From NCBI RefSeq assembly GCF_022045235.1, contig NW_027266286.1:39804001-39868000 (forward strand): 64,000 nucleotides of DNA, written 5' to 3'. Below the pieces are notes generated by a model. The model searched no databases. It saw only the letters and a list, made by a program, of their open reading frames with translations, and was not told where the DNA came from. A program made the position numbers and the translations under genes. Shown here piece by piece: positions 30,901 to 64,000 of this stretch (the first letter of the stretch is position 1; the number at the start of each line of letters is the position of its first letter). This DNA is from Haliotis cracherodii (taxonomy: Eukaryota).

Positions 30901-33900
30901 TGTAAAGGATGAGCTGTGATCTCCGCTTTCCCGCGCTTTGTGTTGTTCCAGTAGGAAGGCATCGATGACGTCATAAACCTCGTTCTCCGGTCGGAAATGC
31001 TGCCTGTGTTCGTCTACTATTCCTTGTATTACGTCTAGAAAAGAAATAACCCAGCAGTGAACAGCCACGCCGGATCGTCCCAATTATTCCACACGTACGT
31101 ACACACATACGCACTGTCGTGAACACCCTGCTTGTGGACACACTACCCTAGGAATATTTATATCCTATTATATAGTAACCCTTCCTGGCGCACCTATAAA
31201 CTTTCCACAGGTGTCATAGATCTTGTTCAGCAGCTTCCGGTAGGAGGGGAGGAACCGGAGCCAGGACACGAACTGCACGAGCGCCGCCTTCTTGGTTGGG
31301 TTCTTCTCTTGGTCGAACGTCTGCAGTAGTGTCAGGAAGCGCTCGTCATCATACTCGAACCTGTCGGCAGCCATCAGGTAGGGGAGATGAGTTAGTACAG
31401 TACCGAGTATTTACTGAGTGAGTGTGTGAATGTCGTCCAATGCGTCAGTCAGCATTGTTCCAGCTTATGGGGGTTGCCTGCAAATATTCGAGTCTTGGCC
31501 AGGAAAACCAGTGACTGAACCCATGAGCAACGCCCCAACGCCCATCAGCCATGTCACCGGGACTGACTACACATTCAGTCTTAAGATGTACATGTATTAT
31601 ATGAAAGTTGTGTGTTACAACTAACGCGTGTAGGTATACTTTCCTGCCTCAAGGTTTATAGTGAACATGTGTGCCTGCATGGTAGTCTTTGGCATATGCC
31701 TCAACTCAGATTTGACAATGTCGCAGTATGTGTCATGGTGCCAAAAGACATAGATGTTGGGAGACAGACGACGCTCGGGAATCAATATAGAGTTGTTTGT
31801 TCAAAAATACTAAGGTCTGTTATAGACACACTGAAAGTACCGTGACCCGAAGCAGATGTTACAGATGATGTTGGAGACCCCCTTAAAGATGACAGGATAA
31901 GGCTCGAACGTCTCTCCGATCATCTTGTCGAATGTTGACGACAGCACCTGTCGGTGGAAACGTTCTTTGTACACACATGCACGACCTGAATCACTTTGGA
32001 TCTTCGCCCACAATTAGCTCACACACCGAAATATTGCTGTATAATGTTCAAACTTCCGTCCGACCAAACCCACAACACATTCGCGTCATTGTAGGCAATA
32101 GCTATAATTCAGTATCAGCTGTTCTATCAGCCACGGCTGCGGGCTCCTCGGCGCCCCCGTTACACATCTTCTGTTCGTCCAAACCGAGTTCTAGTCACTT
32201 CGCATTTTATTTTAAACGTAATTACCCCGACCTGTACGTAATTGAGGAGTTCAGTCACTTTATATAAATTATCCCGACCTGTACGTAATTCAGGTGTTCA
32301 ATCACTTTATACATATTACCCCGGCCAGTACGTAATTCAGGTGTTCAGTCATTTTATACATATTACCCAGACCTGTACGTAATTCAGGTGTTCAGTCACT
32401 TTATACATATTACCCCGACCTGTACGTAATTCAGGTGTTCAGTCACTTTATACATATTACCCAGACCTGTACGTAATTCAGGTGTTCAGTCACTTTAAAC
32501 ATATTACCCAGACCTGTACGTAATTCCGGTGTTCAGTCACTTTATACATATTACCCCGACCTGTGCGTAATTCAGGTGTTCAGTCACTTTATACATATTA
32601 CCCCGACCTGTACGTAATTCAGGTGTTCAGTCACTTTATACATATTACCCCGAACCGTATGTAATTCAGGTGTTCAGTCACTTTATACATATTACCCCGA
32701 CCTGTACGTAATTCAGGTGTTCAGTCACTTTATACATATTACCCCGACCTGTACGAAATTCAGGTGTTCAGTCACTTTATACATATTACCCAGACCTGTA
32801 CGTTATTCAGGTGTTCGGTCACTTTATACATATTGCCCCGACCTGTACGTAATTCAGGTGTTCAGTCACTGTATACATATTGCCCAGACCTGTACGTAAT
32901 TCAGGTGTTCAGTCACTTTATACATATTACCCAGACCTGTACGTAATTCAGGTGTTCAGTCACTTTATACATATTACCCAGACCTGTACGTAATTCAGGT
33001 GTTCAGTCACTTTATACATATTACCCAGACCTGTACGTAATTCAGGTGTTCAGTCAGTTTATACATATTACCCAGACCTGTACGTAATTCAGGTGTTCAG
33101 TCACTTTATACATATTACCCAGACCTGTAGGTAATTCGGTGAAAAACATCGGTGATTTTGAACTGAAAAACACCTTATACTTCACCCCTGACAGTATGGT
33201 TTCTGCAGACAAAGGTAGTTCAGAAGGGCACAAGTATTGATAGAAATAGAAGAATCCCACGCGCATAGATTTAAGCTGGACGAAGTGTGCGCGGAAATTT
33301 CCCCCAAGTTCCATACATATACATTTTTTATATCCTTGGTTTATTACCTCAGTGACGCCATACTAGACACTGGTATTTTGACCTTCATCAAGGGATTCAT
33401 CTGGGTACAACCGAAACGACCCTAAACAATTATATATGTTGTCACCCTCGGCTGTCCTAGGATATGCTCCACACACTTATATATGCTATAACGGGTAGCT
33501 GCATACATATCTCACATACTGTAACAGACCAACAATAGCGGCCCATGGTGCCGAGGATGTTCCATAACCTTCTCACCTCCATCTCCTGGACGATCTTCTC
33601 CTCCAGCTCGATCTTCCCCACTCTCCCGATCTCCCGGAGACAGGAGAAGGCAAACTTCCGCTGCTCCTTCAGCCGCCTTCCCCCGTACGGCAATTGAGAC
33701 AGCCCGTTAACCCCCGTCACGGTGTTGTTGATGTAGAGGGAGGGGCGGCCAGCGAAGGCGTCGGCCTCTCCTACCAGAGTCGCTACAAGACAACATCATG
33801 CCACGATCTTCATCAAGAGCATCAGCCACTCATGATCATCGATGCAGGCGATACAAATACGATTAATGACAAAACTCCTTTGGCTAACATAATGTTAAGT

Positions 33901-40510: not shown

Positions 40511-42073
40511 TCATACTCTACCCTCTTCTTCGTCTTCATTGACTCCCTCTTCCTCCTCGACACATCCGTCTTCCGCTTCGCCTATTCCTTCATCAACAAG
40601 CTGAGCTTCATCCTGCAACTGAACCTCCTCCCTTTCTTCCCCAGCCTCCTGCACAGCCTTAGCCTCCTTCACCATATCAGCCTCTTGAACCTTCTGTGCA
40701 TTCATGCCCTGCGTTTCCGATTCCCTAGATTTCCCGGATTTTGTCCCCTGGTTGCCGGCCCACGCACAGTCTCCCTCTTCCTCTATAGGTGTGTCCACAT
40801 TGCTTTTCCCACTCTTGTTCCGCCCGGTCTTCTTACTGTTGGCAGAGGCAGCTTTACTGATGGCTGAAGGTGAGCGCACCATGAGGAACTCATCTAAATC
40901 TCTGTGGACAGCCACGTCGGAGTACTTGTCCGGAGACCTAGTCGCACCTGGCCTGTTCATTTCCAGCATCATCCGCAGCAGCACGGTGTCCGTGCAGTGA
41001 GCGGGGAAGCCGGACATCTGGGGGATATGCACAGCCACTGACCGGCCGGGGGTGGGCTGCTGGTAGATCCGATTGAAATGGACGTAACTCGAGACAGAGT
41101 CAAACTGGTATTGGGTGTCAGGCTTTGCGACGGTGCGACGTTCTCTCTTCACCTTTCTGTAAGGATTATTGAAGCACACTTTGGCATCTTTCTTTACGAA
41201 CTGGGTGAAGTGTTTCAGCTTGATAGCCTCGTTCTGGGTTCCCAGGGGAAGGCGAATGCTCTGGTTGACACTAAGACATTGATTGAGCGCCTGAGGATTT
41301 GGGGCTACGAGTGGAGACGGGCTCTCCTTGAAGGCGTTGCGCGTGAACCGGCGAGGTGAACGTAGGGGGGTATCGATACTAGGGTACATCTCACTGTACC
41401 CAGATCTGGATGTCCCGCTATCCACCCCCTTCAGTTTATGCCCAGTAAGTTCAAACCCTTCCCCTTGGGACCGAGATGATCTCTTGGCCATGAAAGTACT
41501 ACCATACGACGGAGACAGCGCTGGACCAAGCATGAAGTACGGGGATGCGAAAGCGGGAAGACTGATGTCGTCCTTTGCTTTAATGTCTCTCATCTCCTTC
41601 TCCAACACGGCGCTATTTGTAGGCTCACTATGCGCCTTCCCAATGTGGACTTGGATTTGACGATCGATGTCTTGAGTGTTGGTAGGCTGCAGAGGCTGAA
41701 TTCTGTCTGGGAGCAATTTTAATGTGTCTGGACCGACGTATTTCCCCAACTTGTCCCGAACTGGTTTCCCACGAAGCACAAACTGAATAGTTGACGGACC
41801 AAAGTTGGTGTCCATGGTCGAGATGCCTTGGTTCGCTGTGCGCATGCGTGTGAGGACTTCCATTCGTCTGGAAGCAGGGTTGGAGCTGTTGTTGAGAAAT
41901 TCTTTACTGCAACTTGGTCGCTGACCGGGCATGTAGAAATTGTCACCGTTAGCTACCCATGCTTTCTCTGTAGGAGGGGGTGGTGGCTTAATTATTTCGC
42001 TGTGAGAACTGAACGAGTTTTCCCGAGACGGGGATACCCCTTGGATACGCAGTCTGTCTATTACTTTCGCCAT
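40511..42073 (-). CDS. Uncharacterised 520-aa protein with one coding exon and a Glu-rich C-terminus
   Basis: 1.56-kb open frame, GC-richer than flanks; upstream in-frame stops fix ATG 42073; acceptor at 42149-42150; 5'UTR donor at 43113-43114; minus-strand AATAAA at 40434-40439. No domain recognised. Confidence 0.8.
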   Translation of the reverse strand: MAKVIDRLRIQGVSPSRENSFSSHSEIIKPPPPPTEKAWVANGDNFYMPGQRPSCSKEFLNNSSNPASRRMEVLTRMRTANQGISTMDTNFGPSTIQFVLRGKPVRDKLGKYVGPDTLKLLPDRIQPLQPTNTQDIDRQIQVHIGKAHSEPTNSAVLEKEMRDIKAKDDISLPAFASPYFMLGPALSPSYGSTFMAKRSSRSQGEGFELTGHKLKGVDSGTSRSGYSEMYPSIDTPLRSPRRFTRNAFKESPSPLVAPNPQALNQCLSVNQSIRLPLGTQNEAIKLKHFTQFVKKDAKVCFNNPYRKVKRERRTVAKPDTQYQFDSVSSYVHFNRIYQQPTPGRSVAVHIPQMSGFPAHCTDTVLLRMMLEMNRPGATRSPDKYSDVAVHRDLDEFLMVRSPSAISKAASANSKKTGRNKSGKSNVDTPIEEEGDCAWAGNQGTKSGKSRESETQGMNAQKVQEADMVKEAKAVQEAGEEREEVQLQDEAQLVDEGIGEAEDGCVEEEEGVNEDEEEGRV

Positions 42074-43462
42074 CACGGGTCGTCAAATGTTCTGGAGGTT
42101 ACGAAGTCAAGGGTTTCTTTAGACACACATCCTTTAAACGACCATATTCTGAAATAAACGAAATTGATTTAATTTATTATTACATGCATACAATATTAAA
42201 ACTAATTTTTAAACAAATTGCCACCTGATCCATGTGTGATTGGTACACTGATTCTTCTCCGGCACAATCTGGCGACTTGAAGTACCAATTTGGTGAAGGT
42301 TGCCGAATAACGTACATTAAAGCGTACATTTGGCTTTTGTAACTTTGTAACAGAAAAACGTTATTGTATCCCCCAAAAGCAATTCATTTTTTATTCTCTC
42401 TCTATTCTCGATTTATTCGTTTCAATGTCTGTAGTTAGTTAATCGTTACACAGATATGTAAGTTGATCATAAAAGAACTGTTTAACAGTTTCAAAACGGT
42501 AACATATAAGGTAAGTTGTGTCTGATCGCGTGAGATTTGTACAGCATACACTGTCTTCACACCATGAACTGATATCTTAACGAACTCTCGTGAGATCTAG
42601 CCGAGAAGACACCCAAGCCCCCATGTCTCAATGGCGGAGTAACCAGACACGGGATCATACCGACACATTCGCCGCAGTTCATCAGACATGTTCTGTTAAC
42701 CTTTGTTTCTCTAAACCTCACTCCCAACCCAACCCTAACCATACATATGAGACCCCTACCTCCACTCCCCGGGCACGTTTCGGACACGCCCAACCCCACC
42801 CGCTCATAAAACCATGAACTTTACCTAATAGTCTGTTGATGAGGCTAATACATGTAGTACATAAAATAATTCATCATGTTTTCGTTAGTATGACAAAAGG
42901 TTACTCGCTCTTGGAAACAGTTTACACGATTTAAAGAAAAGTACAGTAACCATTTAAAGAATGAATCTAATCCGTGGCCTTCAAAGTGAAATGTGTTCCT
43001 TTACAGATCCACACGACTTCAGTCCGCCTCAAGTATACCAGATAATGGTAAAGGTCAAAACCAACAAGAGTGTATGTCAAGTGAATAGTGTCTCTACTGT
43101 ACATCAACACTTACCAATTTAGCACCGCTGACTTGCTAACTCTATATAACTTTCTGGTTATTTTTCACGGACAAACATGACGTCTTCTCACAGGCAACCC
43201 ACCTTCCGAAAATTCTCCTTCCTTTTGCAGCTGTGACTATCGCATAATCGATGAAGTTTTGTAAGTTTTCGAGGAGGATACAGTTATTGACATATGGCCA
43301 TTTTGCTCCAAGTGTTGGCAAGGTGTGCGTGGTTTGCGTGTCGAGGTAAGCTGGGATATTGAAGTATCAGCCCGAGGTCTCTAACACCACTGTGTGGAGC
43401 TAAATCATTATTCCTTCCATTGTATTTTACCAACACCGTATCGCCCTACTAATTTCATGCTG

Positions 43463-46904: not shown

Positions 46905-47751
46905 ATTACCCAGAAACGTAATTCGGGTGTTCAGTAACTTTAATCATATTACCCAGACCTGTACGTAATTCAGGTGTTCAGTCACTTTATACATATTACC
47001 CAGACCTGTACGTAATTCAGGTGTTCTGTCACTTTATACATATTACCCAGACCTGTACGTAATTCAGGTGTTCTGTCACTTTATACATATTACCCAGACC
47101 TGTACGTAATTCAGGTGTTCAGTCACTTTATACATATTACCCTGACCTGTAAGTAGTTCAGGTGTTCTGTCACTTTATACATATTACCCCGACCTGTACG
47201 TAATTCAGGTGTTCTGTCACTTTATACATATTATCCCGACCTGTACGTAATTCAGGTGTTCTGTCACTTTATACATATTATCCCGACCTGTACGTAATTC
47301 AGGTGTTCAGTCACTTTAAACATATTACCCTGACCTGTACGTAATTCAGGTGTTCAGTCACTTTATACATATTACCCAGACCTGTACGTAATTCCGGTGT
47401 TCTGTCACTGTATACATATTTCCCAGACCTGTAAATAATTCAGGTGTTCAATCACTTTATACATATTACCCAGACCTGTACGTAATTCAGGTGTTCAGTC
47501 ACTTTATACATATTACCCCGACCTGTACGTAATTCAGGTGTTCAGTCACTTTATACATATTACCCCGACCTGTACGTAATTCAGGTGTTCAGTCACTTTA
47601 TACATATTACCCCGACCTGTAAATAATTCAGGTGTTCAGTCACTTTATACATATTACCCCGACCTGTACGTAATTCAGGTGTTCAATCACTTTATACATA
47701 TTACCCCGACCTGTACGTAATTCAGGCGTTCTGTCATTTTATGCATATTAC
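46905..47751 (+). repeat. 47-bp minisatellite, array 2 (about 18 copies)
   Basis: Same unit and orientation as 32220-33135; degenerate units extend back to about 46780. Confidence 0.97.
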
Positions 47752-50090
47752 CCCTTCTCTGTATGTTTATATATCCCCTTCTCTGTATGTTTATATATCC
47801 CCTTATCTGTATGTTTATATATCCCCTTCTCTGTATGTTTATATATCCCCTTCTCTGTATGTTTATATATGCCCTTCTCTGTATGTTTATATTTTCCCAT
47901 CTCCGAGCGTTTGTATATTCCCTTCTCTGTATGTTTAAATATTCCCTTCTCTGTATGTTTTTATATGCACTTCTCTGTATGTTTATATATTCCCTTCTCT
48001 GTATGTTTTTTATATGCACTTCTCTGTATGTTTATATATTCCCTTCTCTGTATGTTTTTATATGCACTTCTCTGTATGTTTATATATGCACTTCTCTGTA
48101 TGTTTTTATATGCACTTCTCTGTATGTTTTTATATGCACTTCTCTGTATGTTTATATATGCACTTCTCTGTATGTTTATATATTCCCTTCTCTGTATGTT
48201 TTTATATGCACTTCTCTGTATGTTTATATATTCCCTTCTCTGTGCGTGTATATTTACCCTTCTCAGTATGTTACATATGCCCTTCTCTGTTTGTTTATAT
48301 ATGCCCTTCGCTTTATGTTTATATATTCCCTTCTCTGTATTTCTTATATGGCCTTCTCTGTATGTTTATGTATTCCCTTCTCTGTATGTTTTTATATTCC
48401 TTTCTTTATATATTTGTATATGTCCTTCGCTGTATGTCTATATATGCCCTTTTTTGTATGTTTATATATTCCCTTCTCTGTGCGTTTATATATGCCCTTC
48501 TCTGTATGTTTATATATGCCCTTCTCTGTATGTTTCATTTATTCCGTTCTCTGTATGTTTATATATGCCCTTCTCTGTATTTTTCATATATGTCCTTCTT
48601 TGTGTGTTTCATTTATTCCCTTCTCTGTATGCTTATATATGCCCTTCTCTGTATGTTTCATATATGTCCTTCTCTGTGCGTTTATATATGCCCTTCTCTG
48701 TATGTTTATATATATGCCCTTCTCTGTATGTTCCATATATTCCCTTCTCTGTATGTTTCATTTATTCCCTTCTCTGTATGTTTCATTTATTCCCTTCTCT
48801 GTATGTTTCATATATGTCCTTTTCTGTGTGTTTCATATAAGCCCTTCTCTGTATGTTTCATATATGTCCTACTCTGTATGTTTCATTCATTCCCTTCTCT
48901 GTATGTTTCATATATGCCCTTCTCTGTATGTTCCAGATATGCCCTTCTCTGTATGTTTCATTTATTCCCTTCCCTGTATGTTTCATATGTGTCCTTTTCT
49001 GTATGTTTCATATATGCCCTTCTCTGTATATTTCATATATGCCCTTCTCTGTATGTTCCATATATGCCCTTCTCTGTATGTTTATATATGCCCTTCTCTG
49101 TATGTTCCATATAAGCCCTTCTCTGTATGTTTCATATATGCCCTTCTTTGTGTGTTCCATATATGCCCTTCTCTGTATGTTCCATATATGCCCTTCTCTG
49201 TATGTTCCATATATGCCCTTCTCTATATGTTCCATGTATGCCCTTCTCTTTATGTTTATATATATGCCCTTCTCTGTATGTTCCATATATTCCCTTCTTT
49301 GTGTGTTTCATTTATTCCCTTCTCTGTATGTTCCATATATGCCCTTCTCTGTATGTTTCATGTATTCCCTTCTCTGTATATTTCATATATGCCCTTCTCT
49401 GTATGTTTCATATATGTCCTTCTCTGTATGTTCCATATATGCCCTTCCCTGTATGTTTCATATATGTCCTTCTCTGTATGTTTCATATATGCCCTTCTCT
49501 GTATGTTCCATATATGCCCTTCTCTGTATGTTTATATATATGCCCTTCTCTGTATGTTCCATATATTCCCTTCTTTGTGTGTTTCATTTATTCCCTTCTC
49601 TGTATGTTCCATATATGCCCTTCTCTGTATGTTCCATATATGCCCTTCTTTGTGTGTTCCATATATGCCCTTCTCTGTATGTTCCATATATGTCCTTCTC
49701 TGTATGTTCCATATATGCCCTTCTCTGTATGTTCCATATATTCCCTTCTTTGTGTGTTTCATTTATTCCCTTCTCTGTATGTTCCATATATGCCCTTCTC
49801 TGTATGTTTCATCTATTCCCTTCTCTGTATGTTCCATATATGTCCTTCTCTGTATGTTCCATATATGCGCTTCTCTGTATGTTCCATATATGTTCTTCTC
49901 TGTATGTTTCATATATGCCCTTCTCTGTATGTTTCATATACGCCCTTCTCTGTATGTTTCATATATTCCCTTCTCTTTATGTTTATATATGCCCTTCTCT
50001 GTATGTTTCATATATGTCCTTCTCTCTATGTTTATATATGCCCTTCTCTGTATGTTTAATAAATGTCTAGTATATGCCCTTCTCTTTATG
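47752..50090 (+). repeat. 24/25-bp pyrimidine-rich minisatellite (about 2.3 kb)
   Basis: Unit CCCTTCTCTGTATGTTTATATATG (24 bp) shifts to CCCTTCTCTGTATGTT(T/C)CATATATG (25 bp) from about 48530. Confidence 0.97.
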
Positions 50091-51938
50091 TGTCTCAACA
50101 TGAGGAGTCATAGCAGCACTTGTCCCTGTTGGTAAGATTAGAATTGTGATTTTATTTCTGACACATGCTTTGAGGGTTTGCCAATATAAGTGTCAAACCC
50201 TCAGATAGCACTTTTCGATTTTTTTATCATCCTATTAATCACCGATAAATAAATATGTAGGCGCGAAATCGAAGCTGTGTGCTGCTCCCCTTTTTTCTGT
50301 CCGACTTCCACTGGTTCTACACATGTTTCAGCGTGACGATATCGCAGCTACATATTCATCTATAAGTGATTGCTTTACAAAACAGTAAATAAAATCAAAT
50401 AAACATTAAATAAATTGTTTAAAAAAAAAATGAACTTACATTTCATTTTTTTTTAATTAAATGGCATCTTCCATCAATCTCAGTTCGTTTTTTGTAACAA
50501 TACATACTTCGTTTCAGAACTAGTTGGGAATTTATAACAACAAGGGCGGGTAACTACAATCGAGAAACGTCAAAGGAAAAGTACACGTCCAACACATAAA
50601 AATGTGAAAACTTCTATAAATAGAAGGTAACTTTGATGTGGCGTTGGTATTTGATTTAAGCATGCATGTGTATATAAAATGATTACCAAGAAGTTTGATG
50701 TCCCCTTTTTCATTTATGTGAAATGATGATTTCCCGAGGTTTCGATAAAAAGAACCACATTCGTCACTGGGCCTGATGATTAACGGGGTTTGCGACTTGC
50801 TAATTACAACGCAGGGAAACCTCTAACAATTATATGTGTAGGGGTAGTACCCAACAATTGTTGACGTCCCTGTCGTTCATCGGACAATACATAGTCATCA
50901 GACCTTATAGGCTATCAGCTGAAAGACCGTTGTACCGTTCAATAGGACGGGGACAAGCTCATGACATAAGTGTATCTATTACTCATTTGGAGTATCGAAA
51001 CTCCTTATTTGCTATATTTCAATTTAACAAATTTTGCATTTTGAAATGACTTTGTATGAAAATATCACATGGTTTTGGTTTAAAGCCACTTTAAACAGTA
51101 CCCTACTGTCCCAATATGAATACTAGAGGGTCATGACCTGTGAGGAGTCATACTCATCGAAAATGACTAACCTGTACCTAATAATCCTGTCTGACCAATA
51201 CGTGGTGTGGAGCATTTGTACTTCATTTGGCTGACTTATACACAAACATTTATATGATCTGTACACAAATTTAGAGAGCCTGCACACTAAGTACCCAATT
51301 ATTTTCATATTTGTTGCATTTGTAACAAGTTGGTATAAAAGCAAGATGTCAAAAATGGGACTGCTTTAATCAGTATATATTTATAATAATTTATTCACAG
51401 CACTTAATTCACATCACACAAACATCTTAACACCACCATATGATGGCATGTATTTATTAGTAGTGGGACAATGCATTGGCTGATCGCGATTGTTTACTTC
51501 TCGATACAAGTATCAATCGCACGCTAAGAAAAAGTATTGATTCATACTTTAAATTTATTTGTTAATTACTATTACACCAAACATGTATTTGTGCCGACAC
51601 TAACATCTCAACGTCACCATATATTTCTTGACTCAGCACATTTCTGGTGTTCCCCACCATCATATTGATGAAATTTTGCTAAAAACAACATGAACATATT
51701 ATGTATTTGGTAGCACATATGTGCATTCCCATGCCATCTCTCATTTATCACATTTATGAAAATATTTGCTTCTTGATATAATCAGAATGTCTCATAGAAT
51801 GGCCAACATTCCTCAGTTATGCCCCATTACTACTTCGCCAATAGATGGCGCCAAACGCTATGGTCCTGCGCGTACTTCCGGTATATTACGCGGTTCATAG
51901 ATATTTGCAGGACCAACAACTACAACAAAGTATTTACA

Positions 51939-54450
51939 ATGCCTTCGACGTGCTGCTGTGTCCCGGGATGCTGCAATCGAGGTGGTTTGTCGTTTCCGAG
52001 AGAACCCATGTTGCTGAAACGATGGTTGATTGCTATTCGGAGGAGCGACGAATCAAACCAAAGCAAGATGTGGAAACCGTCATCTTACAGTGTTGTGTGT
52101 CATTCCCACTTCAGGCAGTCTGATTTCATTGCTGTAACTAGTTATGGTAAGATATTTGGGTAACTTGTTATGTTTCGATTCGTTGGCAGATTTAATTAAC
52201 GTGCATGCCAATTATATTTGTTATATTTTCTTGCATTGAAATTACGAAGAGGGTTTTACGTGACTCAGAAATTTGTATCCATTATGCAGAAATGTGAAGA
52301 ATGGACGCAGTCAAAATAGAATATGTTCCGTCCCACGGGACACACTTATTTTCACAGATAGTTTGATTTTGTCATTGAGTTAAATTGAGTAAAGATTCTT
52401 ACAACTTCGAAGTGTGTGATTTTTTTTATGATAATTTGTGTTCCCTCCTGTCAGAGTAGGCAGGTAAATTGGAGTATTGGCTAATTCTAATGTAATCATG
52501 TTTGTGTGTGTTTGCATGTGAAGCTATGAGTATATTTCATTGTTTTTTAAAACCAAGATAGAAAAAATGTGTCATTTTTGCCTTACTATAGTAGCCATTT
52601 TTTTGCCAGTGATGTTTAGGTTTGACCCTCATATATTTCATGCAAGGGCCTTTGAAATCAATTACTGGGGGTCTAGTGCATACCCAGTTAATTAAGGTAA
52701 AACCCTGTTTACCACTATTATATTCCTGTTTATTAAGTTGTTGATGTTTGACCATAACCCTTCTTAGTTTTCTTCATTAATTTGTTGAATTGATGATTAC
52801 CAGGAATGTCAACACATATTTGACGTTTTTGCCTTTAATGCGTCATGTTACATTTTCCTGCAGGTGCTTGTTTTCCACAGAGATGAGGCACAGATGATTC
52901 AAGAATACAGGTTCATGTTTGTTCACTTTTGATATGTATTTGTCAGAATAGTGTCATGTGTACGTGTTGAACTTCAAGACACTTCTCTGTATCAGGCATT
53001 ATATGTATGTAATGTTGAGACTATATCTACGAAATTGTCAGCTAATTTATATCATAATTTTCCATAATTTAAATGTGTATCACTATTATGTTCATAATGT
53101 TACAAAACATATCTACCCCATAGAAATTTGTTCTTTCCCTGCAAATTAACTTAAATCTAATCATAAAAAGTTATCTCACAACTGGTAGTCAAAAGATTGC
53201 ACAATATCTGTTTGGAAAATAATAATCAACTGCTGTTTTCCCCAGGGTGTACACCTCTGAGGAGACAGAGAAAACCAGATGCTGTACCATCAATCTTTCC
53301 CTGGACTGATTCAGCCAACACACTTGAGGCCGATGGAGGCTTAAGGAAATCCCGCATTGAAAGACGTGAGAGCCAAAAGAGGACATTTAAAGCAATGGAT
53401 ACAGATTGTGATATTGAATGTGACATCAGTGAGGTAGCTGGGGAGGAAATAATTGACAATGTTGAGTTGGATGAAATGAATACCGACCTAAACATTTGTT
53501 CTGCAGATAGTGCAGAGGTTGAATATGAAAGTACATCAGCTCAGACAGACAAATTTCCAATGCTTTCAGTACAAAGTATTATGTTTAATGCTGCAGCAAT
53601 TTTGTTTTATACAGGACTGTCCAGCTATACAGACTTCACCTTTGTACTTGCAAGTTTGGGTCTATGTGCATATCACCTAAATTATCTGTACAGCAAAGTT
53701 GACAGTATGACTATCAGTGTGGAAAATCAATTGCTTTTACACTTATGAAACTGCGCCGACATAAGACTAACTTTGAACTTGGTCTTCATTTTGGAATTTC
53801 AGAGAAAACTGTATTAAATGTATGGATCACCTGGGTAAATTTTATGTATAGACAGTGGAGTGAGCTTGATAACTGGCCAGAAAGAAACTTAGTGCACTAT
53901 TTTTGTCCATGTGATTTCAAATCCAAATTTCCATCCACACGAATTATCATTGATGGTACTGAATGCCCCATCCAGAAACCAAAACGCCCCATAGCTCAGC
54001 AGTCTACCGACTCAACGTATTAAAATCAAAATACTTGTTGGATCCACACCAGGTGGTCTTGTGTCATACGTGTCTCCTGCGTATGGTTGCTCCACAAGTG
54101 ATTGTCAAATAGTAGAGCGTAGTGGTTTGACAGTGATGTGCGACCCAGGAGATAGTATTATGGCCGATAAAGGTTTCAACGTACAAGATATTTTTGCACC
54201 AAAAGATGTTACCATTAATATGCCAACATTCTTCTCAAAGAAAAACCGTATGTCTGGCAAGACTGTTATGCGTGATAGGAAAATATCAAGCAAAAGAGTT
54301 CACAATGAATTTATTATTGATCTGGCAACAACATTCAAAATACTTACTGAACCTCTTAACAGTTCAGAAACCAAATTAGCCACAGAAATAACCACGGTTT
54401 GCTTCATGCTTTGTTCTTTCAAAAAGTGCATTGTTCCCTCTACTTGCTAA
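51939..54450 (+). pseudogene. THAP + HTH + Harbinger-type DDE transposase; exons 51939-52146 and 53246-54450; disrupted
   Basis: THAP C2CH (CCCVPGC...FP...W...VCHSHF, DAVPSIF after splicing); catalytic motifs IIDGTE, MADKGF, RVHNE; frameshift at about 53745 and stop or deletion at about 54021. Confidence 0.88.
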
Positions 54451-56447
54451 TCATATTGGTTAGCAAATCATTAAAAATATCTGTCATTCCAGTCGGACGT
54501 TAGTCGGTCGTAGAGTATGGAGATATGTTTCTAATTTCTTTCAACAAGGCCTGTTATTACGTTTGCTACATGATTAAAGATAATTGTTGCTAAATATTCA
54601 TGAGGATAAAGTTAAATGTAACAGGTTATCGATTATGTATCATGTTCAGACTAGAATGGGAATTTGTGGTCAAAGAGCAAGTTTGAAGCAAATTTACCAT
54701 TTGTGCAGCCACAAACAATCATACTCTTTTGTCAAGGTACAAACATAAATGTGTTAGTATCAGAGCTTATGATAATATAATGCTAAACTTCCTGTTCAAT
54801 GTGGTGTTAAACCCATCTCACTCACTGAATTTGTTTTAAATTTATGACATCAGTAACATGAATTTCAGAATGTTGACAGTGTTTGGTGCATACTGTTACA
54901 TTTTGCGGTAATATGTCATTATCCCCTGCCACAAAGTGGGAGAGAGGTACACATTTTTTGTCCGAGCATAATTCGGAAACTGTTTCATATGTTATTATGA
55001 AACTTTGCACATGTATCAAACACAAGTTGAACTGGTGCCTTTTCCTGTTTCCATGGCAGCAATTTGGATTAAACCCAAATACTGGTTGCTTTTATTTCAC
55101 GAACTTAAAATCTGAATAAGTTGAAGTGTATATTTCTGGATCATATATCCATTATTTTTTCAATGGATACATGTTTACTGAGAAACAAATTGTAATTTAT
55201 TGTCCTAAGTTAGGAGGGCCATGTTTAAATCTGTTACTTTGTGCATTGTGGCTGTAATGAGGACACAGTTCTAATGTGCCCCATGGCTGTGTATTCTTGT
55301 TTCATATGATACCGGCAGCAGCTAGACCGGTCCAGATATCTGGCACGTCTTAGTGCTGTTGCTTCAGCTCTCTCAGATGTTATGAATGGCAATCACGACA
55401 AGCAAGAAGTCAATGACAATGGGTTTTTTATCATTCCCACAAACAGTTCAGCTGCAGAAAATAATCACATGACAGTTGTAATTCCTCAGATACAGAGCTG
55501 AAGGAGTATGCTTCAAGCAGTGATGATATTTATGAGTATGGACACTGAATTGTGATTATGTATTGCACTGTAGCTTCATCTATATTTAAATATTTAGATC
55601 TTCCAACTATTAACTACTGGAGTACTTAACAGATGGTTGTCATCGTCACAAAGTGAGTTAAAAGTTAATGTCACATCAATACTATTTCAGCCATATAGCG
55701 ACGAGACCAAGTTGATATACACAATTTACTCATGAATGCAAAGGTATATTTAAAAACAATTTTTCATACACAATTGGACATAACAGTATCATTTATACTG
55801 TTTTAAAACACGGGTTATAGGCCACCAGTAACCAAAGCTAGGCCACCTCGCAGGGGATCATGGGGACTTACGGTGCCTCTGCTTCCTGCACGATACCCCA
55901 GCAGGATTTATGTCATTAACTAAGCCACTGGTGGTTGTGCTCAATACTAGCCAGTCAGCAATGAGCTGGCTTAAAACACTGGTTGAGGATAGTTACATTG
56001 ATTATGATAGGATTACGTGTCACACGGTTGTGGGGGGGGGGGGGGGGGGGGGGGTGTGATATTATGATATTAAGATTATTATCCAACTATTAACTACTGG
56101 AGTGATTAGAAGATGGTTGCCATTGTCACATAGTACTGTAACAGTAAGTACTAAATGTCTTCATAGACATCTGAGATTGTATTTATTTACACAAGTGAAT
56201 GCATCAATGTATGGGGCCAGAGTTCGACCTGGTTTTGTCTGATGCAATTCTTTTCACGTCAACATGCATCTGGTGAATTATCATCCTTAAATGGAGCCCT
56301 GCAAGTTTTTTCATAACTATTTGTTTGTGAATGTCCATATATGCAGAATATAATATGTTCAGCATTAAACATTGAGACTACAATTCTGTCTTTCTTGTTT
56401 ATAGGGCTGATGACCATTGACACATGAGTATCAGCAGTTACTGAAAT

Positions 56448-59387
56448 TTACCAGGAATACCTGTCATAATCTCTGAAATAGAATTTGTCAAGTAGTGCCT
56501 TTTTGAAAAAGGTGTCATAAAATGCCACAAGTTTTTCAACCATAGATTCAATGAAATGGTCATCTCGGGATACAGTAAAATATTTAAAATCCTTCAGCGT
56601 GTATACAATAAAAATGCACTGTTTTCTACCAGTACAGTAGAGCTGCCCTTGCACTTGAAAGAAATATGGCTTGCTTTTGTCAAGGGTAAGTTTTCCCTCA
56701 GATACCTTCAAATAGGGAACAGTTATCTCAGAGATTAGACAATCTTTAGATGCAAATGGACATTTCACTTCAATGGTAGTATCATCACCGAGAATCTGGT
56801 GAAGCTGCGAGAAATGGATGAACATCTGACTCAAACATGCCACATGGCGAGGTTTTGAAACCACCTTTGCATATTTTCTGCCATGTCTAAGTGGTGGACT
56901 TTGAATGTCCTCGAAAGGCTTAGTCATTGATCTAGCAAGTTTATGAAAATCAGTTTTGTCTGTTGCCAAACAAATTTTCCCAAAATTGGAAGAAGAAATT
57001 CTCTTTGTGTGTTCAGTTTTCCATTCCTCGCTCTTTGACTGTTTACAGGTTATTATTTCAAGGTTGGTTTTGTCCATATCTGATATTTCTGATATATTCT
57101 GGGATTTCAGGTATTGGTCAGCTAAAGATAACTTAAGATAATCATGATCATGATTAACAGCAAATGGATTTGCTGGAGGAAACATTTTAGCAACTGGAAA
57201 TGGATTGACACTAGGGTGGTTCAACCAAACATTGCAGAAAAAGTCAGGGTAATTTGGCACTTTGCGATACTGAACTGGTCGTGGGTCAAATATAACATTC
57301 AGTTCACTGTTGCATAAATCAAGGTCAGTTGCTTTAATTGGACTGCCTTTATATGGTTTACTTTTATGAAATGTTTGCAATCTTTGTGTACATGTTTCTT
57401 CTGTTAAAACATCGCCAGTTGTTGAAAATTTGTGCATAGCATATAACACTGCACAAATATGTTTGCCATGTCCTGATGGACCCTGGCCTGCAGCACACTC
57501 ACACTGCCCCTCCACAACAGAACCATCGTCATCAATTGCAATATTGACTTTGTAAGTCACATGCTTCTTCATTTCAGCACGGCACTCAGACTTCAGGAAA
57601 CACATGTTACTAGGTTTTGAATAACGAAAAAAATTCAAAAACCTACTAGTGTACAGATTCTTTGAACTTGAACCAAGTTTCTTCTGAAAAGGCTGTAAGT
57701 AATAATTTATAGCTTTGTATGCTAAGAAAGGAAGATGACTGTCACCATTTACATCCCTATAAGTTTCAACTAGGGGCAGTGTCATTTCAAACTCAGCTTC
57801 AAGTTCTGTCTCTCTCCCAAAATTGTAGTTTCGGTCATAGCTCTCGAGTCTGAAAAACATTTGAAATAAACAACTGTAAAAGAAAAAACCTGATTGAAAA
57901 AAATAACTGTAAAATATATGGACTATTAAATTATTTTTGGAGTACACAAATGTCTTAGTTTCCATTTTGTCAAAAAGTAACAATTATTTTAAGAACAGAT
58001 CCCTGTAACTCCAAAGTCAACAAATCAGTATTTCTGTCAGTAAGGAAGCTTAAGCCATCTCTGCATTGTTATCAGTACTAAAACTTGACTTTTGTTCAGT
58101 AATAATATCTTTACTTGCACTACAGTAATTGTATATAATTTTGTTTGTTAGAAAAACAACATATGATAATACGGATATTAATATTAACACGAGAATAAGA
58201 CATTGTGTCACAAAATAAAAATACATGCATTGAATAAGGGTTCCTGATGTGTTTGCCTTCGACCGGAATCGAACCAATGTCTAAAGATTACTCTGTTAGA
58301 CTACCATTCAAATGCTTCATTACATCTAATCTTAATATTAGAAATATGAACGCGGTTATACAAGTATGGACCCATCATATTTGTGAAGAAATAATAAATA
58401 TGTGAACCTTTCACACTTGAGGATGAAATAAATGTTCTGGGTGAAGCGGTATAGGAAGGTCACATCACAGTACATAAGGTCACATTTTTATGTCAAATTG
58501 TGTGGAATCTTCTTGACTAAATATTTCAGAGCAGGTTCAAAAGTAAATTTCTAGTAGTGAATTTGAAATGCTAATTACATCATATTTGCAGTATTTGACT
58601 GACACTTGGGTGTCATAAAACAAGTAGTAAGAAACTTAATTTAGCAAGTGTAGCAAGGGGGCATTATGATTATTTAAGCTACATTTTTGGGGACTTGTCA
58701 TTTATTTGGGGGTGGGGGAGATAGGAGAAAATGTTACATGGACTGTGTGGGGGTTGGTGAGTTAAACGCGATGCACTCCTTAGACCGCTTCCAAGATAAT
58801 ATCTCTGCTTAAATTTACTATGTATATTCGTATCGAAGAACAATTTTTTATTGAATAATTGCCCAAATAATTATAGAATCTATAAACCGGAAGTTATCCC
58901 AACCTCATGTAAAAGGGTGTAATATTTTGCACACTGCCAGTGAGTCATTAATTCGAAGAATAAATTATTGTGACTGACATTTACCTTCCGTACAAGATCC
59001 GTGGTCACCGCTCTTTCCCTTGGCAGTGCAACGCAAAGCGTCCTTAGCAACGGGGGCATGTTGTTTACGTGAACGAAAACTGAAGCACTTATGTTGTCGG
59101 CATTATCGCGTCGATGCTTACGTCATTTGTTTAGCAATCTCAGTTGTCTAAACTAAACATATGTTCTACCAATGACCATGATACCAATATTGCACTGTGT
59201 AAAGTGACAAAATGGGGAATAATTACTGTTACAATCTTATAAAATAACTGCTCAGTAAGAAATGCTAAGAAACAGCAATATTAGAAACTTACCGTTCTAT
59301 CAGATCGATTTTTCTTCCTGACACTCTAGCACCTCGTGCTTTGAGCTCAGTCTTCAGTTCGGGCAACTTCCAGCTTCTGTAATTCAT
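56448..59387 (-). CDS. SAP + SWIM + YqaJ/lambda-exonuclease-like protein (element ORF2); exons 59293-59387 and 56448-57849; probably inactivated
   Basis: Exon 1 MNYRSWKLPELKTELKARGARVSGRKIDLIER (SAP) splices in phase 2 to LESYDRN; SWIM CECAAG...HGKHICAVL; YqaJ motifs QSKSEEW...RISSSNF, IEVKCP, YFFQVQGQL. Confidence 0.85.
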
Positions 59388-59681
59388 GATAGAAATAGGC
59401 CTTCAAGTACTACCGGCTGTTTACAGAAAAGCAAGTGGGTCAATGTCGACTGAAGTTTATATATGTTGGACCGTACCTACCGCAGCGCCGCCAAGCGGGC
59501 AAGGGGGCGCAACTCCAGGAATGTTTGCCATTGACCACTAAGACATGAACACAATGACTGTCTTCTGTCCCTTCCTTCATATTGCTTAAGTGGTGTTTCA
59601 ATAAACAATGTCGGCTTGGTAGAGCACAGTACTCCATGATATCGCTGGTAGAGCAACTTTCGAACTTCTTTTGTGGATGCC

Positions 59682-60215
59682 CATCTTCCAGAGGCAAGGG
59701 AGTTAACTGACCTTAATTGTCCAGTTTCAACCTTTGCCGAACTAGGCTGGAATTTCTGAATTGTAGCGCAACCAGTTGCTATTACAGGTTATACCCCTTC
59801 TATGTCCTTTGACAATCAGAATGCACCTCTGATATCACTTGCATTTGCTTCAAAGAAAATGGCGGCGCCCAGTCAAGACAATATGATCGATAATCAAGAT
59901 CTATATTGTAATAAAACATGTCTTACTTCGCGAAGTGCATCCAGTCATGTGAGCACCTTGATTAAAAACATGAAAATATTTGGAAAATATCTGTTGAAGC
60001 TAAGTTGAGGGTACACATTCTATGCAAATCCTGCAATTGTCAGAAGTTTACACATCAGTTCACGAATCTGATTTCAATTTTATTATGCAATTTTGATTGG
60101 GCTCTGCATGGACTCTATAGTCCAGCCAAAACGTAACTCCATAATTCCAGGCTAGTTCGGCAAGGGTGGAAACTTGACTTTTGCAATCAGTTAACTCCCT
60201 TGCCTTAGAAAGATG
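59682..60215. mobile_element. MITE family X, copy 2 (534 bp), 9-bp TSD (MULE-like)
   Basis: TIR CATCTT...GGCAAGGGAGTTAACTGA; flanks GTGGATGCC/GTGGATGCA. Confidence 0.88.
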
Positions 60216-60444
60216 GTGGATGCAAAAAAAGAAAGAGAGATGTGAACTATCACACATTAGTGGGAGGGAGGAAAAATTTTATTAGTTTTAGATGGCCACA
60301 TTGAAAGCTTTGAGCTGAGTGTGTCCATAGGATGTTCAAGATATTGCCATGTCTCCTGAAAAAGTTAATGTGACTTATTATTTGGCAAAATTGTATTAAT
60401 TTGTTTGTGTACCTGTTGTCTTCTAGAATTTCCCCTAACTTGGT

Positions 60445-63400
60445 ATGTGGTTATCCAAGTCTAAGACCAGCTCTAAGGATGACACAAGCAGCAAGCAAAC
60501 TACCCAAGGAATTGGAAGTCAGCAACATGACCTGTTTAACACACGCAAGAGAAGGAGGTGGGAAGTCAGTGATGAGTATCTTGACAACCGTCGCTCAGTG
60601 TCTGAAAAACCCAGTACAGCTAAAAAGACAAAAGCTGCCGCAAGTACTAGTCAGTATGAAGATGAGGTGTCTGATGAGGAGTTTGTCATCATCGACTTGT
60701 TCTCCTCTGATGAACATGAAACTTCAAGTCAGATGCTCAAATCTGATGTTAAGAATGTGTCACACATATCATCCTCCCAAAAGAAAAAGACACCGAATGA
60801 CACCAGGAGTACTGCCTCCAATTCGCAGGTGTCTCCAATCTACAACACCTCATCTATCTTTAAGAAATTCCAAAATCAAAGTGGAGGTCGGGGAGCAAGC
60901 TCATCAAAGCAAGGTTTTGATGATGAGATGATGTTTACACAGGATGCAGGTGACACTGACTTACCTGAGCTCTCCTGGCCAAAGAGAAGGACTGTCAGAC
61001 TGTCTCAGAGACACAGTTCAGCTTCTAGCCAGAGTCAAGCCAGTCAGTCTCCCAAGAGGAACAAAAGCATGTCACAGATTGTCAGTCGAGTCATCTCAGA
61101 TATCAACAGTTCTAGTTCTGACGCTGAGGAAACATTAGCTGAAAAGTTGTTAACCTTAAAGAGGCATGCAAAACAACAGTCTGCTGATTCTAAAAGTAAT
61201 AAAGCTAAGAGTTGTGGTCAGGTTATGAAGTCCCCTGGAGACACACTTACCGCCTTGAAACCAAGACCTAACAAGTTGTCGCTAAACAAAAAAACCCAGA
61301 ACGTTTCTTCTGACAGTTTTTCTGACTTTGTTATACTAGAAACCTCAAATGGAGACTCTTCATCAGATGACATACCTACAAGCAAAGAGAACATTAAAAA
61401 TGAGCAAAGTTTTGTTGCAATTGCAAAAAGGGGGAAAGTCTCAACAACCTGTGCCCCATATCGTGGTGTGTATGAGAAAGACAATAAGTGTGACAGTCAA
61501 ATATGTAAGGGGGAAAGGCATAAAGACATTGGTAATGTGACAAAGTCCAATTCAACATCAGTTTGGCAGTCTAGTGCAATGACAAAGTCTAGTAAGAAGA
61601 ATGCTTCCTCCTCTGCTTCAGACAGTGAGCCACCCCTTTCCAGGGCTAATCTTGATGCTGATAGAAAGAAGGGCCAGGCACCTTACAAATCAAGGACCTC
61701 AACAATAACCAGTAGTCGGAAGGCTAAGATAAAGAGAGACTATGAAAGTTTTTCGGATGATGACATATCGTGCCATTCTGAAGCTTCCTCTGACTCTGAA
61801 GGGGAATACCATTGTCCACCACTTCCACAGAAGGCTTCCAGAAAGTCCAAGGCTATTGTGTCTTCTTCTGATGAGGAGACACAGGAATATCAGTATGAGC
61901 AAGGTGAACACCAAACAAGAACACCTGCCCTCTCCAGTTTCATTGTTTCCCAGACTGCCAAGGAGAAGCTCAAGAAGGTTGTGTCTGCTACTTGCAAGAT
62001 GGAGTGTAGGAGAGGAAGCACACAAGATGGTGATGCCACACAACAGTATGACTTCAAGGTTTATGACAACAGGAACCTTGAGTCCATGAGTTTTCAGACT
62101 GCAGCTGATATTAAACAAACAAAGGAAACAAAATCTGCTCAAGGTGGGGAAACTGTACCTGGATCCAAAACAAAAGATGATGAGATTGACGATGAACTGA
62201 CCCAGCCCCCAGACACATTGTTTGACTCCCAGGAAGGTGACGACAGTGATATCATGGTGATTGGTCTTGATGAGGACGTGACACAACCAATGGAAGAGGA
62301 CGATGAGGAACTGACCCAGGAACCATCACAGACTGTTTATGGGAATCCTCCTGAACTTTCTCTGGTTGATGCAATGCTGCATCAAAAGTGTCCTTCCAAT
62401 ATATCAGATGTTGATCCTCCACTTCTGAGTCAGCAGGTCTTGAATCCAAAAGTCATATCCTGTGTCAAACCTCCCATGGTGGAAACTGCGATTACCGGCA
62501 GATCTTTTACAGAGTCGAAGAAAATTGAAAGTAGATCAGGAGGTAGCACTGACAGCAATGCCAGTGAAAATTGTCTTTTGTTTAAGCCTGTATGTGATAG
62601 TAATCGAAAGGGAGAGGAAATAAATGAAAATAGTGGTGTTTTTGATCATTCAAAGCATTCTGAAATTAGTGTGTCAGGATTTCACGAAAAGTATGTTGCA
62701 GCTTCCAAGCAAGATAGGGCAGAGGACACAAGGAAAGAGTTCACTGATATTCCAGATGATTTTGAAAGTATAAAGGTGAAAAAGGAAGGAGTCAAGATTA
62801 AACAGGAGAAACTAGAGCTCCCTATAAAGCTGCCTTGTTACACACAGGAGGAGGATGTCATCTTTGTGTATGATTCAAGTGATGATGAAGCCCTTATTGA
62901 TCTCTCACAGACCAATGTTCGCTCAGAACACATCTCGGACACAGACAGCATGTTTGACGTGTTTGACCACTCTGACACAGAACTGTTTGACCTTGACTTT
63001 GGTGAGGAGGATGTGACCCTGGTTAATGATTCTGATCAAGACAAATCCCTTGAAGAGATAGCTGAGGAGGATAGAAATCCCTTTGATCATCTAGGAGAGT
63101 CTGATGAATCTGATCAAGAACAGATTCAAGGGACAACCACCACTAAGAAAAAAGGAACATTTGACTTTGAAAGTGTTTCTGATAACAGTAAACATGCTAA
63201 TTGTCAGATGTCTTCAAAGCCTGGAAAGAGAAGAAGCATTTGGGAGATCAGCTCAGATTCAGACGAAGAGGAAATTTTCCATCCCGAGCATGGGTCTCCA
63301 CATTCAATGTCTGTCAGTAAAGTACTGGAAACAAATCAGGTTGAGGATATTTACCTGGCAGAAACACAAGTAGATGACGTGGAGGACAATGGTGAGATGC

Positions 63401-64000
63401 TGGAAGCATGGGATGATAAACCTCCAGGCTTACACATTGTACCAAACTACAAGCAGTATCCTCTTACCAGTGACAACAGTGTGTTTAATGTGTTGACTGA
63501 AGTTGATGACTCCCTTGATGATAAGAGCAAGGACAACTATGTGATAAAATCCAAGTGTGATTTAGGAGACAACAATCAATGTCATAAGGAAAGTGAAATC
63601 CAGGCTGGCAGCAGTGTTGCTATACAGCTGTCCAGGAAGGTATCAAGAGGTAAAAGTGTGTCCTTTAACTTGCAGCAGGAATCTTCAACAGATGATTCAT
63701 TTCTGTCTGATGAAGACATCTATATGGCTGCAACGCAAATGGATGCAAGTGTATCTGAAGCTTTGCAAAATAAAGCCAACAATTTATCAAAAGATAAAGC
63801 TATTGTTAGCTCAGATAATACCCAAGTTGTTGTAGCAAGGAAAACAGAACTATGCCAGGATCAACATGTGTGTAGCCAAGAAAAGAAAATGCGAAAGACT
63901 GCTTCAGTTAAGTCAGTTGTATGGTCGTCTCCCAATGTAGAAATGAGGCCTCCAGTATTTAAACCTTCTAAGTCATCCATGGGGAGGAAAAGCACTATTA
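60445..64000 (+). CDS. Large Ser/Asp/Glu-rich, probably disordered nuclear protein (>=1185 aa, runs off the window)
   Basis: Acceptor ttgtcttctag at 60426; in-frame TAA then ATG 60445 (MWLSKSK...); no stop found in this frame to 64000, so it is absent from the ORF track; RKRRR NLS, SIM-like and SQ/TQ motifs. Confidence 0.85.
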   Translation, partial: MWLSKSKTSSKDDTSSKQTTQGIGSQQHDLFNTRKRRRWEVSDEYLDNRRSVSEKPSTAKKTKAAASTSQYEDEVSDEEFVIIDLFSSDEHETSSQMLKSDVKNVSHISSSQKKKTPNDTRSTASNSQVSPIYNTSSIFKKFQNQSGGRGASSSKQGFDDEMMFTQDAGDTDLPELSWPKRRTVRLSQRHSSASSQSQASQSPKRNKSMSQIVSRVISDINSSSSDAEETLAEKLLTLKRHAKQQSADSKSNKAKSCGQVMKSPGDTLTALKPRPNKLSLNKKTQNVSSDSFSDFVILETSNGDSSSDDIPTSKENIKNEQSFVAIAKRGKVSTTCAPYRGVYEKDNKCDSQICKGERHKDIGNVTKSNSTSVWQSSAMTKSSKKNASSSASDSEPPLSRANLDADRKKGQAPYKSRTSTITSSRKAKIKRDYESFSDDDISCHSEASSDSEGEYHCPPLPQKASRKSKAIVSSSDEETQEYQYEQGEHQTRTPALSSFIVSQTAKEKLKKVVSATCKMECRRGSTQDGDATQQYDFKVYDNRNLESMSFQTAADIKQTKETKSAQGGETVPGSKTKDDEIDDELTQPPDTLFDSQEGDDSDIMVIGLDEDVTQPMEEDDEELTQEPSQTVYGNPPELSLVDAMLHQKCPSNISDVDPPLLSQQVLNPKVISCVKPPMVETAITGRSFTESKKIESRSGGSTDSNASENCLLFKPVCDSNRKGEEINENSGVFDHSKHSEISVSGFHEKYVAASKQDRAEDTRKEFTDIPDDFESIKVKKEGVKIKQEKLELPIKLPCYTQEEDVIFVYDSSDDEALIDLSQTNVRSEHISDTDSMFDVFDHSDTELFDLDFGEEDVTLVNDSDQDKSLEEIAEEDRNPFDHLGESDESDQEQIQGTTTTKKKGTFDFESVSDNSKHANCQMSSKPGKRRSIWEISSDSDEEEIFHPEHGSPHSMSVSKVLETNQVEDIYLAETQVDDVEDNGEMLEAWDDKPPGLHIVPNYKQYPLTSDNSVFNVLTEVDDSLDDKSKDNYVIKSKCDLGDNNQCHKESEIQAGSSVAIQLSRKVSRGKSVSFNLQQESSTDDSFLSDEDIYMAATQMDASVSEALQNKANNLSKDKAIVSSDNTQVVVARKTELCQDQHVCSQEKKMRKTASVKSVVWSSPNVEMRPPVFKPSKSSMGRKSTI

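Follow-up and report, generated by a model that had tools for sequence, protein, structure and literature searches.

A defunct ISL2EU transposon in the abalone Haliotis cracherodii, with sister copies that encode a possible end-resecting partner and a transposase message that may be off by default

We analysed a 64,000-nucleotide stretch of the Haliotis cracherodii genome (contig NW_027266286.1, positions 39,804,001 to 39,868,000, NCBI RefSeq assembly GCF_022045235.1; hereafter the window) that contains a DNA transposon of 7729 bp (51801-59529) with AT on either side. As a first-pass annotation of the sequence had proposed, the element carries two convergent, intron-containing genes (Table 1). 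One encodes a transposase with THAP (Pfam, E 4e-11), HTH_Tnp_4 and DDE_Tnp_4 domains; the other, the second open reading frame (ORF2), encodes a YqaJ, lambda-exonuclease-like protein preceded by a SAP domain (E 1.6e-10). That the element belongs to ISL2EU and that the window copy is dead we regard as virtually certain. We also think it slightly more likely than not that sister copies encode a partner protein that resects DNA ends and a transposase whose message is likely to be off by default through a 47-nt, stop-bearing exon, here called E2.

Table 1 Features of the transposon, in window coordinates
Feature	Position	Strand	Evidence and remarks
Left AT target-site duplication copy	51799..51800		A just before; same in other copies
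Left terminal inverted repeat	51801..51813	+	13 bp, GG start; same end in other copies
Transposase exon 1, coding part	51939..52146	+	5′ part of THAP with C2CH ligands, phase-1 donor; Pfam THAP, donor used in contigs
E2, cassette exon, candidate poison exon	52864..52910	+	47 nt, stop-bearing; joints in 7 of 8 likely-RNA runs
Transposase exon 3	53246..54450	+	THAP C-terminal box, HTH_Tnp_4, DDE_Tnp_4; Met120 at 53395; broken in window copy
ORF2 exon 2	56448..57849	-	SWIM, [DE]HxY block, lambda-exonuclease-like (YqaJ); open but catalytically dead in window
YqaJ/lambda-exonuclease-like domain	56625..57026	-	Residues 307-451 of database model P0001, mapped by hand
Out-of-frame ORF2 stretch between compensating deletions	56792..56860	-	PD motif lost; comparison with sister copies
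[DE]HxY near-invariant motif	57138..57149	-	P0001 residues 266-269; pattern of the HCF-1-binding motif
SWIM zinc finger	57438..57554	-	Residues 131-169, mapped by hand
ORF2 exon 1, SAP	59293..59387	-	95 nt; Pfam SAP E 1.6e-10; splice sites in 7 of 7 copies; model P0001
Right terminal inverted repeat	59517..59529	-	Repeat finder and comparison with left end
Right AT target-site duplication copy	59530..59531		T just after

The terminal inverted repeats match at 12 of 13 positions and were also paired by a repeat finder. Each end gave 16 matches in the element's own genome (G000, 1.18 Gb), and both ends were present in 6 (L021-L026) of 13 genomic stretches retrieved from it. Including the window, the full-length element thus occupies seven places, which count as six independent insertions because L025 and L026, only 0.01% apart, have the same flanking sequence. 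The inverted repeats and AT duplication read from the window alone recur in this collection: the same boundaries recur at the six other places, AAT precedes 9 of the 10 left ends examined (the exception is an old copy, L030), AT follows 9 of 9 right ends (8 as ATT, 1 as ATA) and the ends are precise in all seven full copies. A paralogous empty site for the AT duplication was sought at four loci and no clean one was obtained; the window flanks are unique at the junction, and L021, whose flank alone was used to align candidate sites, sits in a diverged, internally repetitive repeat. Young copies are 8423-8544 bp long and differ from one another by 0.3-1.3% (the duplicate pair aside), and the window copy lies about 5% from them. 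Database proteins named as H. cracherodii and H. rufescens are 99-100% identical to the proteins of the element.

The assignment to ISL2EU stands. The copy ends show the A|AT|T duplication that Han et al. 2015 give as the ISL2EU target (PMC4482050), and the 13-bp inverted repeats start with GG, as do the published ones of 6-259 bp. The first open reading frame, which is whole in L021 and broken in the window copy, combines THAP, HTH and DDE domains and has R(3)E at 424-428, and ORF2 has a YqaJ domain (Pfam E 1e-15 in L021 and in P0001). The marks of PIF/Harbinger elements, a Myb/SANT second open reading frame and a 3-bp TWA duplication, are absent. The supposed joint mobilisation of the two genes is also supported. 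Of 25 loci with both cores, 8 were dropped for identity above 90%; over the remaining 17, distances between transposases track those between nucleases (rho 0.66, 0 of 2000 permutations), and 9 of the 17 have the same nearest neighbour for both proteins. The correlation demonstrates co-inheritance, which does not amount to interaction. As a class the element is ordinary, textbook ISL2EU. The published account gives the role of ORF2 as unknown (PMC4482050), and a paper of 2022 came across no prior demonstration that the group is active (PMC9179366).

Many further ISL2EU-like families occur in G000. One has at least eight places of near-equal score (L043, L044) and a YqaJ gene that is divergent from the transposase; no SAP, SWIM-region or THAP match was found in the stretch fetched.

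The window copy, first described as complete, falls about 700-800 bp short of the young copies in length, is disabled in both genes and is a fossil. Its transposase has lost 1 bp (after 53738) and 11 bp (after 54024). ORF2 has lost 5 bp (after 56791) and 28 bp (after 56860), and the two deletions compensate for each other: a 511-codon frame looks open, and about 23 codons between them are scrambled, the catalytic PD motif among them. Substitutions affect the residue that corresponds to Glu85 of lambda exonuclease and the third cysteine of SWIM, and the YqaJ Pfam score is 20.9 bits, below the cut-off, versus 58.6 bits in L021. These lesions in both genes rule out the window copy as an autonomous element. 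Both genes are open in L021, with all motifs present (a 431-codon transposase frame and a 509-amino-acid spliced ORF2), and in L023, in which an Arg replaces the Gly found in 74 of 77 alignment rows. L022, L024, L025 and L026 each have at least one broken gene.

The transposase gene as first modelled from the window missed a third exon, E2. We found 23 sequencing runs, 18 of them guessed to be RNA and none on record as RNA, and mapped eight contig sets to L021. E2 is spliced into the transposase message in seven of these eight likely-RNA runs, from six studies and five organisms. Its joint to exon 3 appears in X1, X2, X5, X6, X14 and X17 and its joint to exon 1 in X1, X2, X6, X11 and X17, in each case with GT-AG ends, and one X17 contig holds all three exons; in X9, neither joint is among the 15 of 42 joint rows listed. 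The 12 gap letters of the X1 contig across exon 3 fall outside the coding part, so this contig does not come from a frameshifted, window-like copy.

Inclusion of E2, which shifts the frame and has a stop at its nucleotides 21-23, limits the product to 76 residues, with the stop 24 nt upstream of the last junction, and deprives the THAP domain of its C-terminal box, the proline of which is required for DNA binding by THAP1 (PMC3479173). Direct joining of exon 1 to exon 3 yields 474 amino acids and is the sole joining that encodes a whole THAP domain; the resulting CxxHF-to-AVPS spacing of 23 is that of 14 of 18 THAP-bearing homologue models. All eight database models in the transposase cluster have 200-355 amino acids, too short for THAP plus core, and one of them (P0110) begins at Met120, whereas the database model of a congeneric sister family (P0246) has THAP and no E2-like exon. 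E2 is an undescribed feature of the abalone ISL2EU family, a dominant stop-bearing transposase exon. A literature search, with Repbase and subscription papers outside its scope, found no description of a poison exon or of control through splicing in ISL2EU or in the transposases of other DNA elements (the P element is compared below).

Beyond the transposase stop (L021 3783-6220), contigs extend toward the 3′ end of ORF2; the convergent transcripts may overlap, the contigs being unstranded.

We consider the chances about even that E2 is a splicing off-switch maintained by selection and analogous to P-element control. No difference in E2 separates the window copy from the 5 other young copies that were aligned or searched, and L030 has a single change. 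Over a test stretch of 107 sites (E2 with 40 nt upstream and 20 nt downstream), 2 sites differ in L030 versus 9.4% in the remainder of the introns (binomial p 0.002), and 1 differs in the window copy versus 5.4% (p 0.02). In old copies on C6, at 65-75% identity, the two splice sites of E2 persist around an exon of 46 nt, still frame-shifting; their exon-1 donor and exon-3 acceptor have decayed. Divergence in these copies is 6/46 in E2, 21/140 (15%) in exon 1, about 22% in exon 3 and 25-34% in the alignable intron. The region concerned (G000:C6:38.30-38.70 Mb; L034-L036) holds at least seven fragments, all with the E2 splice sites, that arose by duplication from a single old copy.

The main rival is that E2 is a functionless cryptic exon of the abalone lineage, a tolerated accident that lowers transposase in an ordinary ISL2EU element; this we judge unlikely, while taking it seriously. 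It fits the result of a search of 11 introns at the corresponding position in distant elements, in which E2 did not exceed the level of shuffled sequence, and E2 was likewise not found in 10 slices of other G000 families. For these reasons, and because the sister family is modelled without E2, a switch of this kind does not appear general to ISL2EU. The E2 donor, which matches the consensus at 6 of 9 positions, also suits a cryptic exon, as does a second stretch of intron 1 that is as conserved as E2 in L030 (4/141). An accident accounts less well for the E2 form being the sole spliced form in all four runs with a complete joint table and present in six studies, for splice sites kept at 65-75% identity with E2 more conserved than its introns, and for a family that spread recently while carrying E2.

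Besides the restricted distribution and the equally conserved intron stretch, several points weigh against a selected switch. No exon 1-exon 3 joint occurs in the four runs with a complete joint table, in which the two E2 joints are the sole rows, and the productive joint is likewise missing from the 15 of 42 joint rows listed for the first run set; alternative splicing is deduced from the need for a whole THAP domain and was not seen. Contig data drop rare forms, the RNA status of the runs is a guess, and intron-retaining contigs are present too (X11, X14). The C6 copies all derive from a single old copy by duplication, and the comparisons share the L021 branch and so are not independent. Within the family, the counts for the THAP exon were too small to reveal selection.

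Other accounts of E2 were rejected. A decayed coding exon is at odds with homologues that have no room for extra residues at this point and with the change in length from 47 to 46 nt; a general ISL2EU feature has no support in the distant introns, the other G000 families or the sister family model; and a piece of another high-copy repeat would not give a search result of just 16 places, all in the element's own family or its old C6 relatives. E2 begins with GT, the layout of recursive-splicing exons (PMC6224609), and a weak donor (4 of 9 positions), which could compete with E2's own donor, is recreated at the exon 1-E2 joint; by analogy, recursive re-splicing may be a route to E2 skipping, as a possibility and not a result.

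Some 240-340 nt upstream of exon 3, intron 1 of the transposase gene of another element, L038, contains an island that resembles an exon and has a strong acceptor. The island is somewhat more conserved among L039, L040, L042 and L052, has no sequence likeness to E2 and is skipped by the database model; it could be a second poison exon.

The 95-nt SAP exon of ORF2 and its 59293->57849 splice, both proposed from the window, are borne out by sister copies: GT and AG stand at donor and acceptor in 7 of 7 copies, the frame is open in 4 of 7, and database model P0001 (509 amino acids) is the SAP-spliced form. Among the 15 of 42 joint rows listed for likely-RNA contigs on L021 the SAP joint does not appear; as a hint only, one X2 contig ends at L021 position 658, where a cut at the SAP joint would be expected, with 97 further letters beyond it. 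Of the domains expected in the spliced reading frames, THAP, DDE_Tnp_4, SAP and, in L021, YqaJ were found, and SWIM fell just under the cut-off (18.9 versus 19.6 bits in the intact copy). SAP is annotated in 20 of 109 ORF2 homologues, many of the others being drawn from contig collections and lacking the N-terminal region. It forms its own exon in other G000 families (L037, L038-L041, L051 and L052; weak in L045-L047) and in 2 of 73 metagenome loci (L080, L097). Because of these annotations and separate exons, SAP is not special to the window element, and both SAP and SWIM are already carried as database annotations of ORF2 homologues. No description of SAP or SWIM in ISL2EU was found in a literature search that did not extend to reports in Repbase, to papers under subscription or to supplements 2-3 of PMC4482050. 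Neither word occurs in the main texts of PMC4482050, PMC4122938 and PMC9179366 or, as a domain, in supplement 1 of PMC4482050, and Table S2 of that paper gives YqaJ alone for ORF2.

The nuclease core of ORF2 is strongly conserved. Of the 109 proteins, 77 were aligned; the catalytic residues are retained in 75 (E359), 77 (D393), 75 (E403) and 77 (K405) rows, W308 in 77 and the SWIM ligands in 75. E359, D393, K405 and W308 align with Glu85, Asp119, Lys131 and Trp24 of lambda exonuclease, the roles of which, together with that of Arg28, are described in PMC7496540. Intact copies have the full set of catalytic Glu, PD and ExK with the nuclease fold, and the window copy does not have the full set. 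A structural model of ORF2 (predicted local distance difference test score, pLDDT, 89; predicted template-modelling score, pTM, 0.59) has LHK-Exo and lambda exonuclease as its best folds (E 1e-10 to 2e-9), and its matches in BFVD are viral YqaJ and alkaline exonucleases. When L021 is compared with the window copy, the ratio of non-synonymous to synonymous substitution rates (dN/dS) comes to 0.14 in ORF2 (p 2e-10), a sign of purifying selection, and to 0.42 in the transposase (p 0.02); comparisons with older, decayed copies give 0.39-0.53.

From its residues and modelled fold, we hold it plausible, at a little short of even chances, that ORF2 is an active 5′-to-3′ exonuclease that resects the ends of the donor site. 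The earlier suggestion that ORF2 may process ends or steer repair is in keeping with the conserved catalytic residues and with purifying selection. A point on the other side is the position of the 5′-phosphate-binding Arg28, which is Arg in 73 of 77 rows and His (His312) in the abalone family; the change may lower the activity or processivity of the enzyme.

The same catalytic conservation, purifying selection and co-inheritance would be expected if ORF2 acted on the transposon ends instead, trimming the non-transferred 5′ strand or flank for integration and being needed at every jump. We think this improbable: a processive exonuclease of the lambda type would endanger 13-bp ends that are precise in 7 of 7 full copies, and the related Spy elements mostly have a single open reading frame (PMC4122938). 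Less probable again is that ORF2 is mainly an adaptor, in which SAP binds DNA, SWIM the transposase and a [DE]HxY motif HCF-1 chromatin complexes, so that target choice or expression is affected and nuclease activity is secondary. The motif occurs in 95 of 109 ORF2 homologues, versus 8.5 expected in shuffles, and in 0 of 120 transposase homologues in one set and 1 of 79 in another; it fits the HCF-1-binding motif (HBM) consensus of THAP proteins (PMC13631171), and a distant family (L048) has such a motif upstream on the transposase strand. However, the block around it is conserved and ordered (pLDDT about 88), so that its role may be structural, HCF-1 is not bound by every canonical HBM (PMC13631171), and near-invariant catalytic residues argue that catalysis matters. 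A literature search for an HCF-1 motif in transposon proteins found none described. For E2, a further and improbable reading is that the three-exon message is productive, re-initiation or leaky scanning giving a 355-amino-acid, THAP-less transposase from Met120 that serves as a dominant-negative subunit or relies on the SAP domain of ORF2 for DNA binding, like the Myb partner of Harbinger: database models begin at Met120, the stop lies near the last junction and Harbinger does depend on a second protein for DNA binding (PMC9179366), but 12 ATGs precede Met120 from the left end of the element, the database models are automatic predictions, and distant elements, too, have a THAP split by a phase-1 intron.

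Under the reading that we favour, a transposase restrained by E2 and a resecting ORF2, the transposase would perform THAP-guided cut-and-paste into AATT. Inclusion of E2 would yield a 76-residue THAP stub without the C-terminal box, likely to be unfolded and inert; because the truncation falls inside THAP, a null product is likelier than a repressor. Junction-dependent decay follows a 50-55-nt rule, and the E2-bearing message would escape it because the stop is only 24 nt before the last junction. To make the 474-residue transposase, E2 would have to be skipped, probably at low frequency or in the germ cells, with recursive re-splicing as one possible route given the leading GT of E2. SAP domains usually bind DNA and SWIM domains usually make protein contacts, and these two would bring ORF2 to the break made by the transposase. 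Gap repair from the sister chromatid is a source of transposon copy gain; resection of the donor ends by ORF2 would lead to such repair, which would restore the element and raise its copy number.

A bolder version can be offered only tentatively: the family has its own P-element-like switch, invented independently in another superfamily and phylum, with a selected E2 that is included by default and skipped, perhaps through recursive re-splicing, only in the germline, where transposition pays, and ORF2 additionally recruits HCF-1 through [DE]HxY.

Elsewhere in the window, a MITE-like repeat (miniature inverted-repeat transposable element) of about 535 bp (59681-60216; 74-nt inverted arms, 82%; 2244 candidate genomic matches) lies 150 bp from the right end of the transposon. 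About 900 bp from the element, a frame with many Ser, Asp, Glu and Lys codons (60439-63999, + strand) stays open for at least 1187 codons, runs off the window and is likely to be a large host exon. On the minus strand are a frameshifted mariner-type transposase (24950-25871; Pfam Transposase_1, E 6e-20), a host exon with a Rab-binding PH_RBD domain (659-1168; E 7e-10) and a 523-codon open frame with no Pfam match (40511-42082). Arrays of one 47-bp unit stand 14 kb apart (32221-33141 and 46916-47754), the second adjoining a 94-copy array of a 25-bp unit (47752-50065).

L021 is a natural intact, recently copied element with defined exons, which makes the role of ORF2 testable. A transposase cloned from cDNA or from database models would be a THAP-less or stop-bearing form and could wrongly look inactive. 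If E2 is indeed a regulated switch, splicing-based self-restraint, best known from the P element, would have re-evolved here by a different route.

Among known systems, ISL2EU of the PHIS superfamily (PMC4482050, PMC4122938 and PMC9179366) shares the AT target, GG termini and short inverted repeats, the THAP-HTH-DDE transposase with a YqaJ reading frame of about 500 amino acids, and an animal host. The abalone element, at 8.4-8.5 kb, is longer than the published average of about 4.8 kb, and no splicing control of the transposase was found in these published accounts. PIF/Harbinger elements have a related DDE transposase and two open reading frames, but differ in the second of these and in the target duplication (PMC9179366). 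KolobokE and KolobokD are likewise DDE transposons with an accessory exonuclease, lambda-like or DEDDh, but belong to another superfamily with a TTAA target, and the KolobokE nuclease lies downstream of the transposase domain (PMC9587614). Lambda exonuclease and LHK-Exo (PDB 3sm4, 1avq and 3syy; PMC7496540) share with ORF2 the fold, the catalytic Glu/Asp/Glu/Lys and the Trp of the 5′-phosphate pocket, whereas ORF2 adds N-terminal SAP, SWIM and [DE]HxY, has a His in the pocket and has no annealase partner in the element.

For the proposed splicing control, the closest analogue is the Drosophila P element (IVS3, KP repressor; PMC12393704), which also has a THAP transposase and restrains itself through a default message made unproductive by a splicing choice; in the abalone family, such a default message is what the contigs of the presumed RNA runs contain. 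The P element splices its third intron in the germline and retains it in the soma, and its truncated products with an intact DNA-binding domain act as repressors (PMC12393704). Whereas P retains an intron downstream of that domain and makes a repressor, the abalone element, from another superfamily, includes a cassette exon that cuts into THAP itself, leaving a 76-residue product that lacks the C-terminal box and is likely to be inert.

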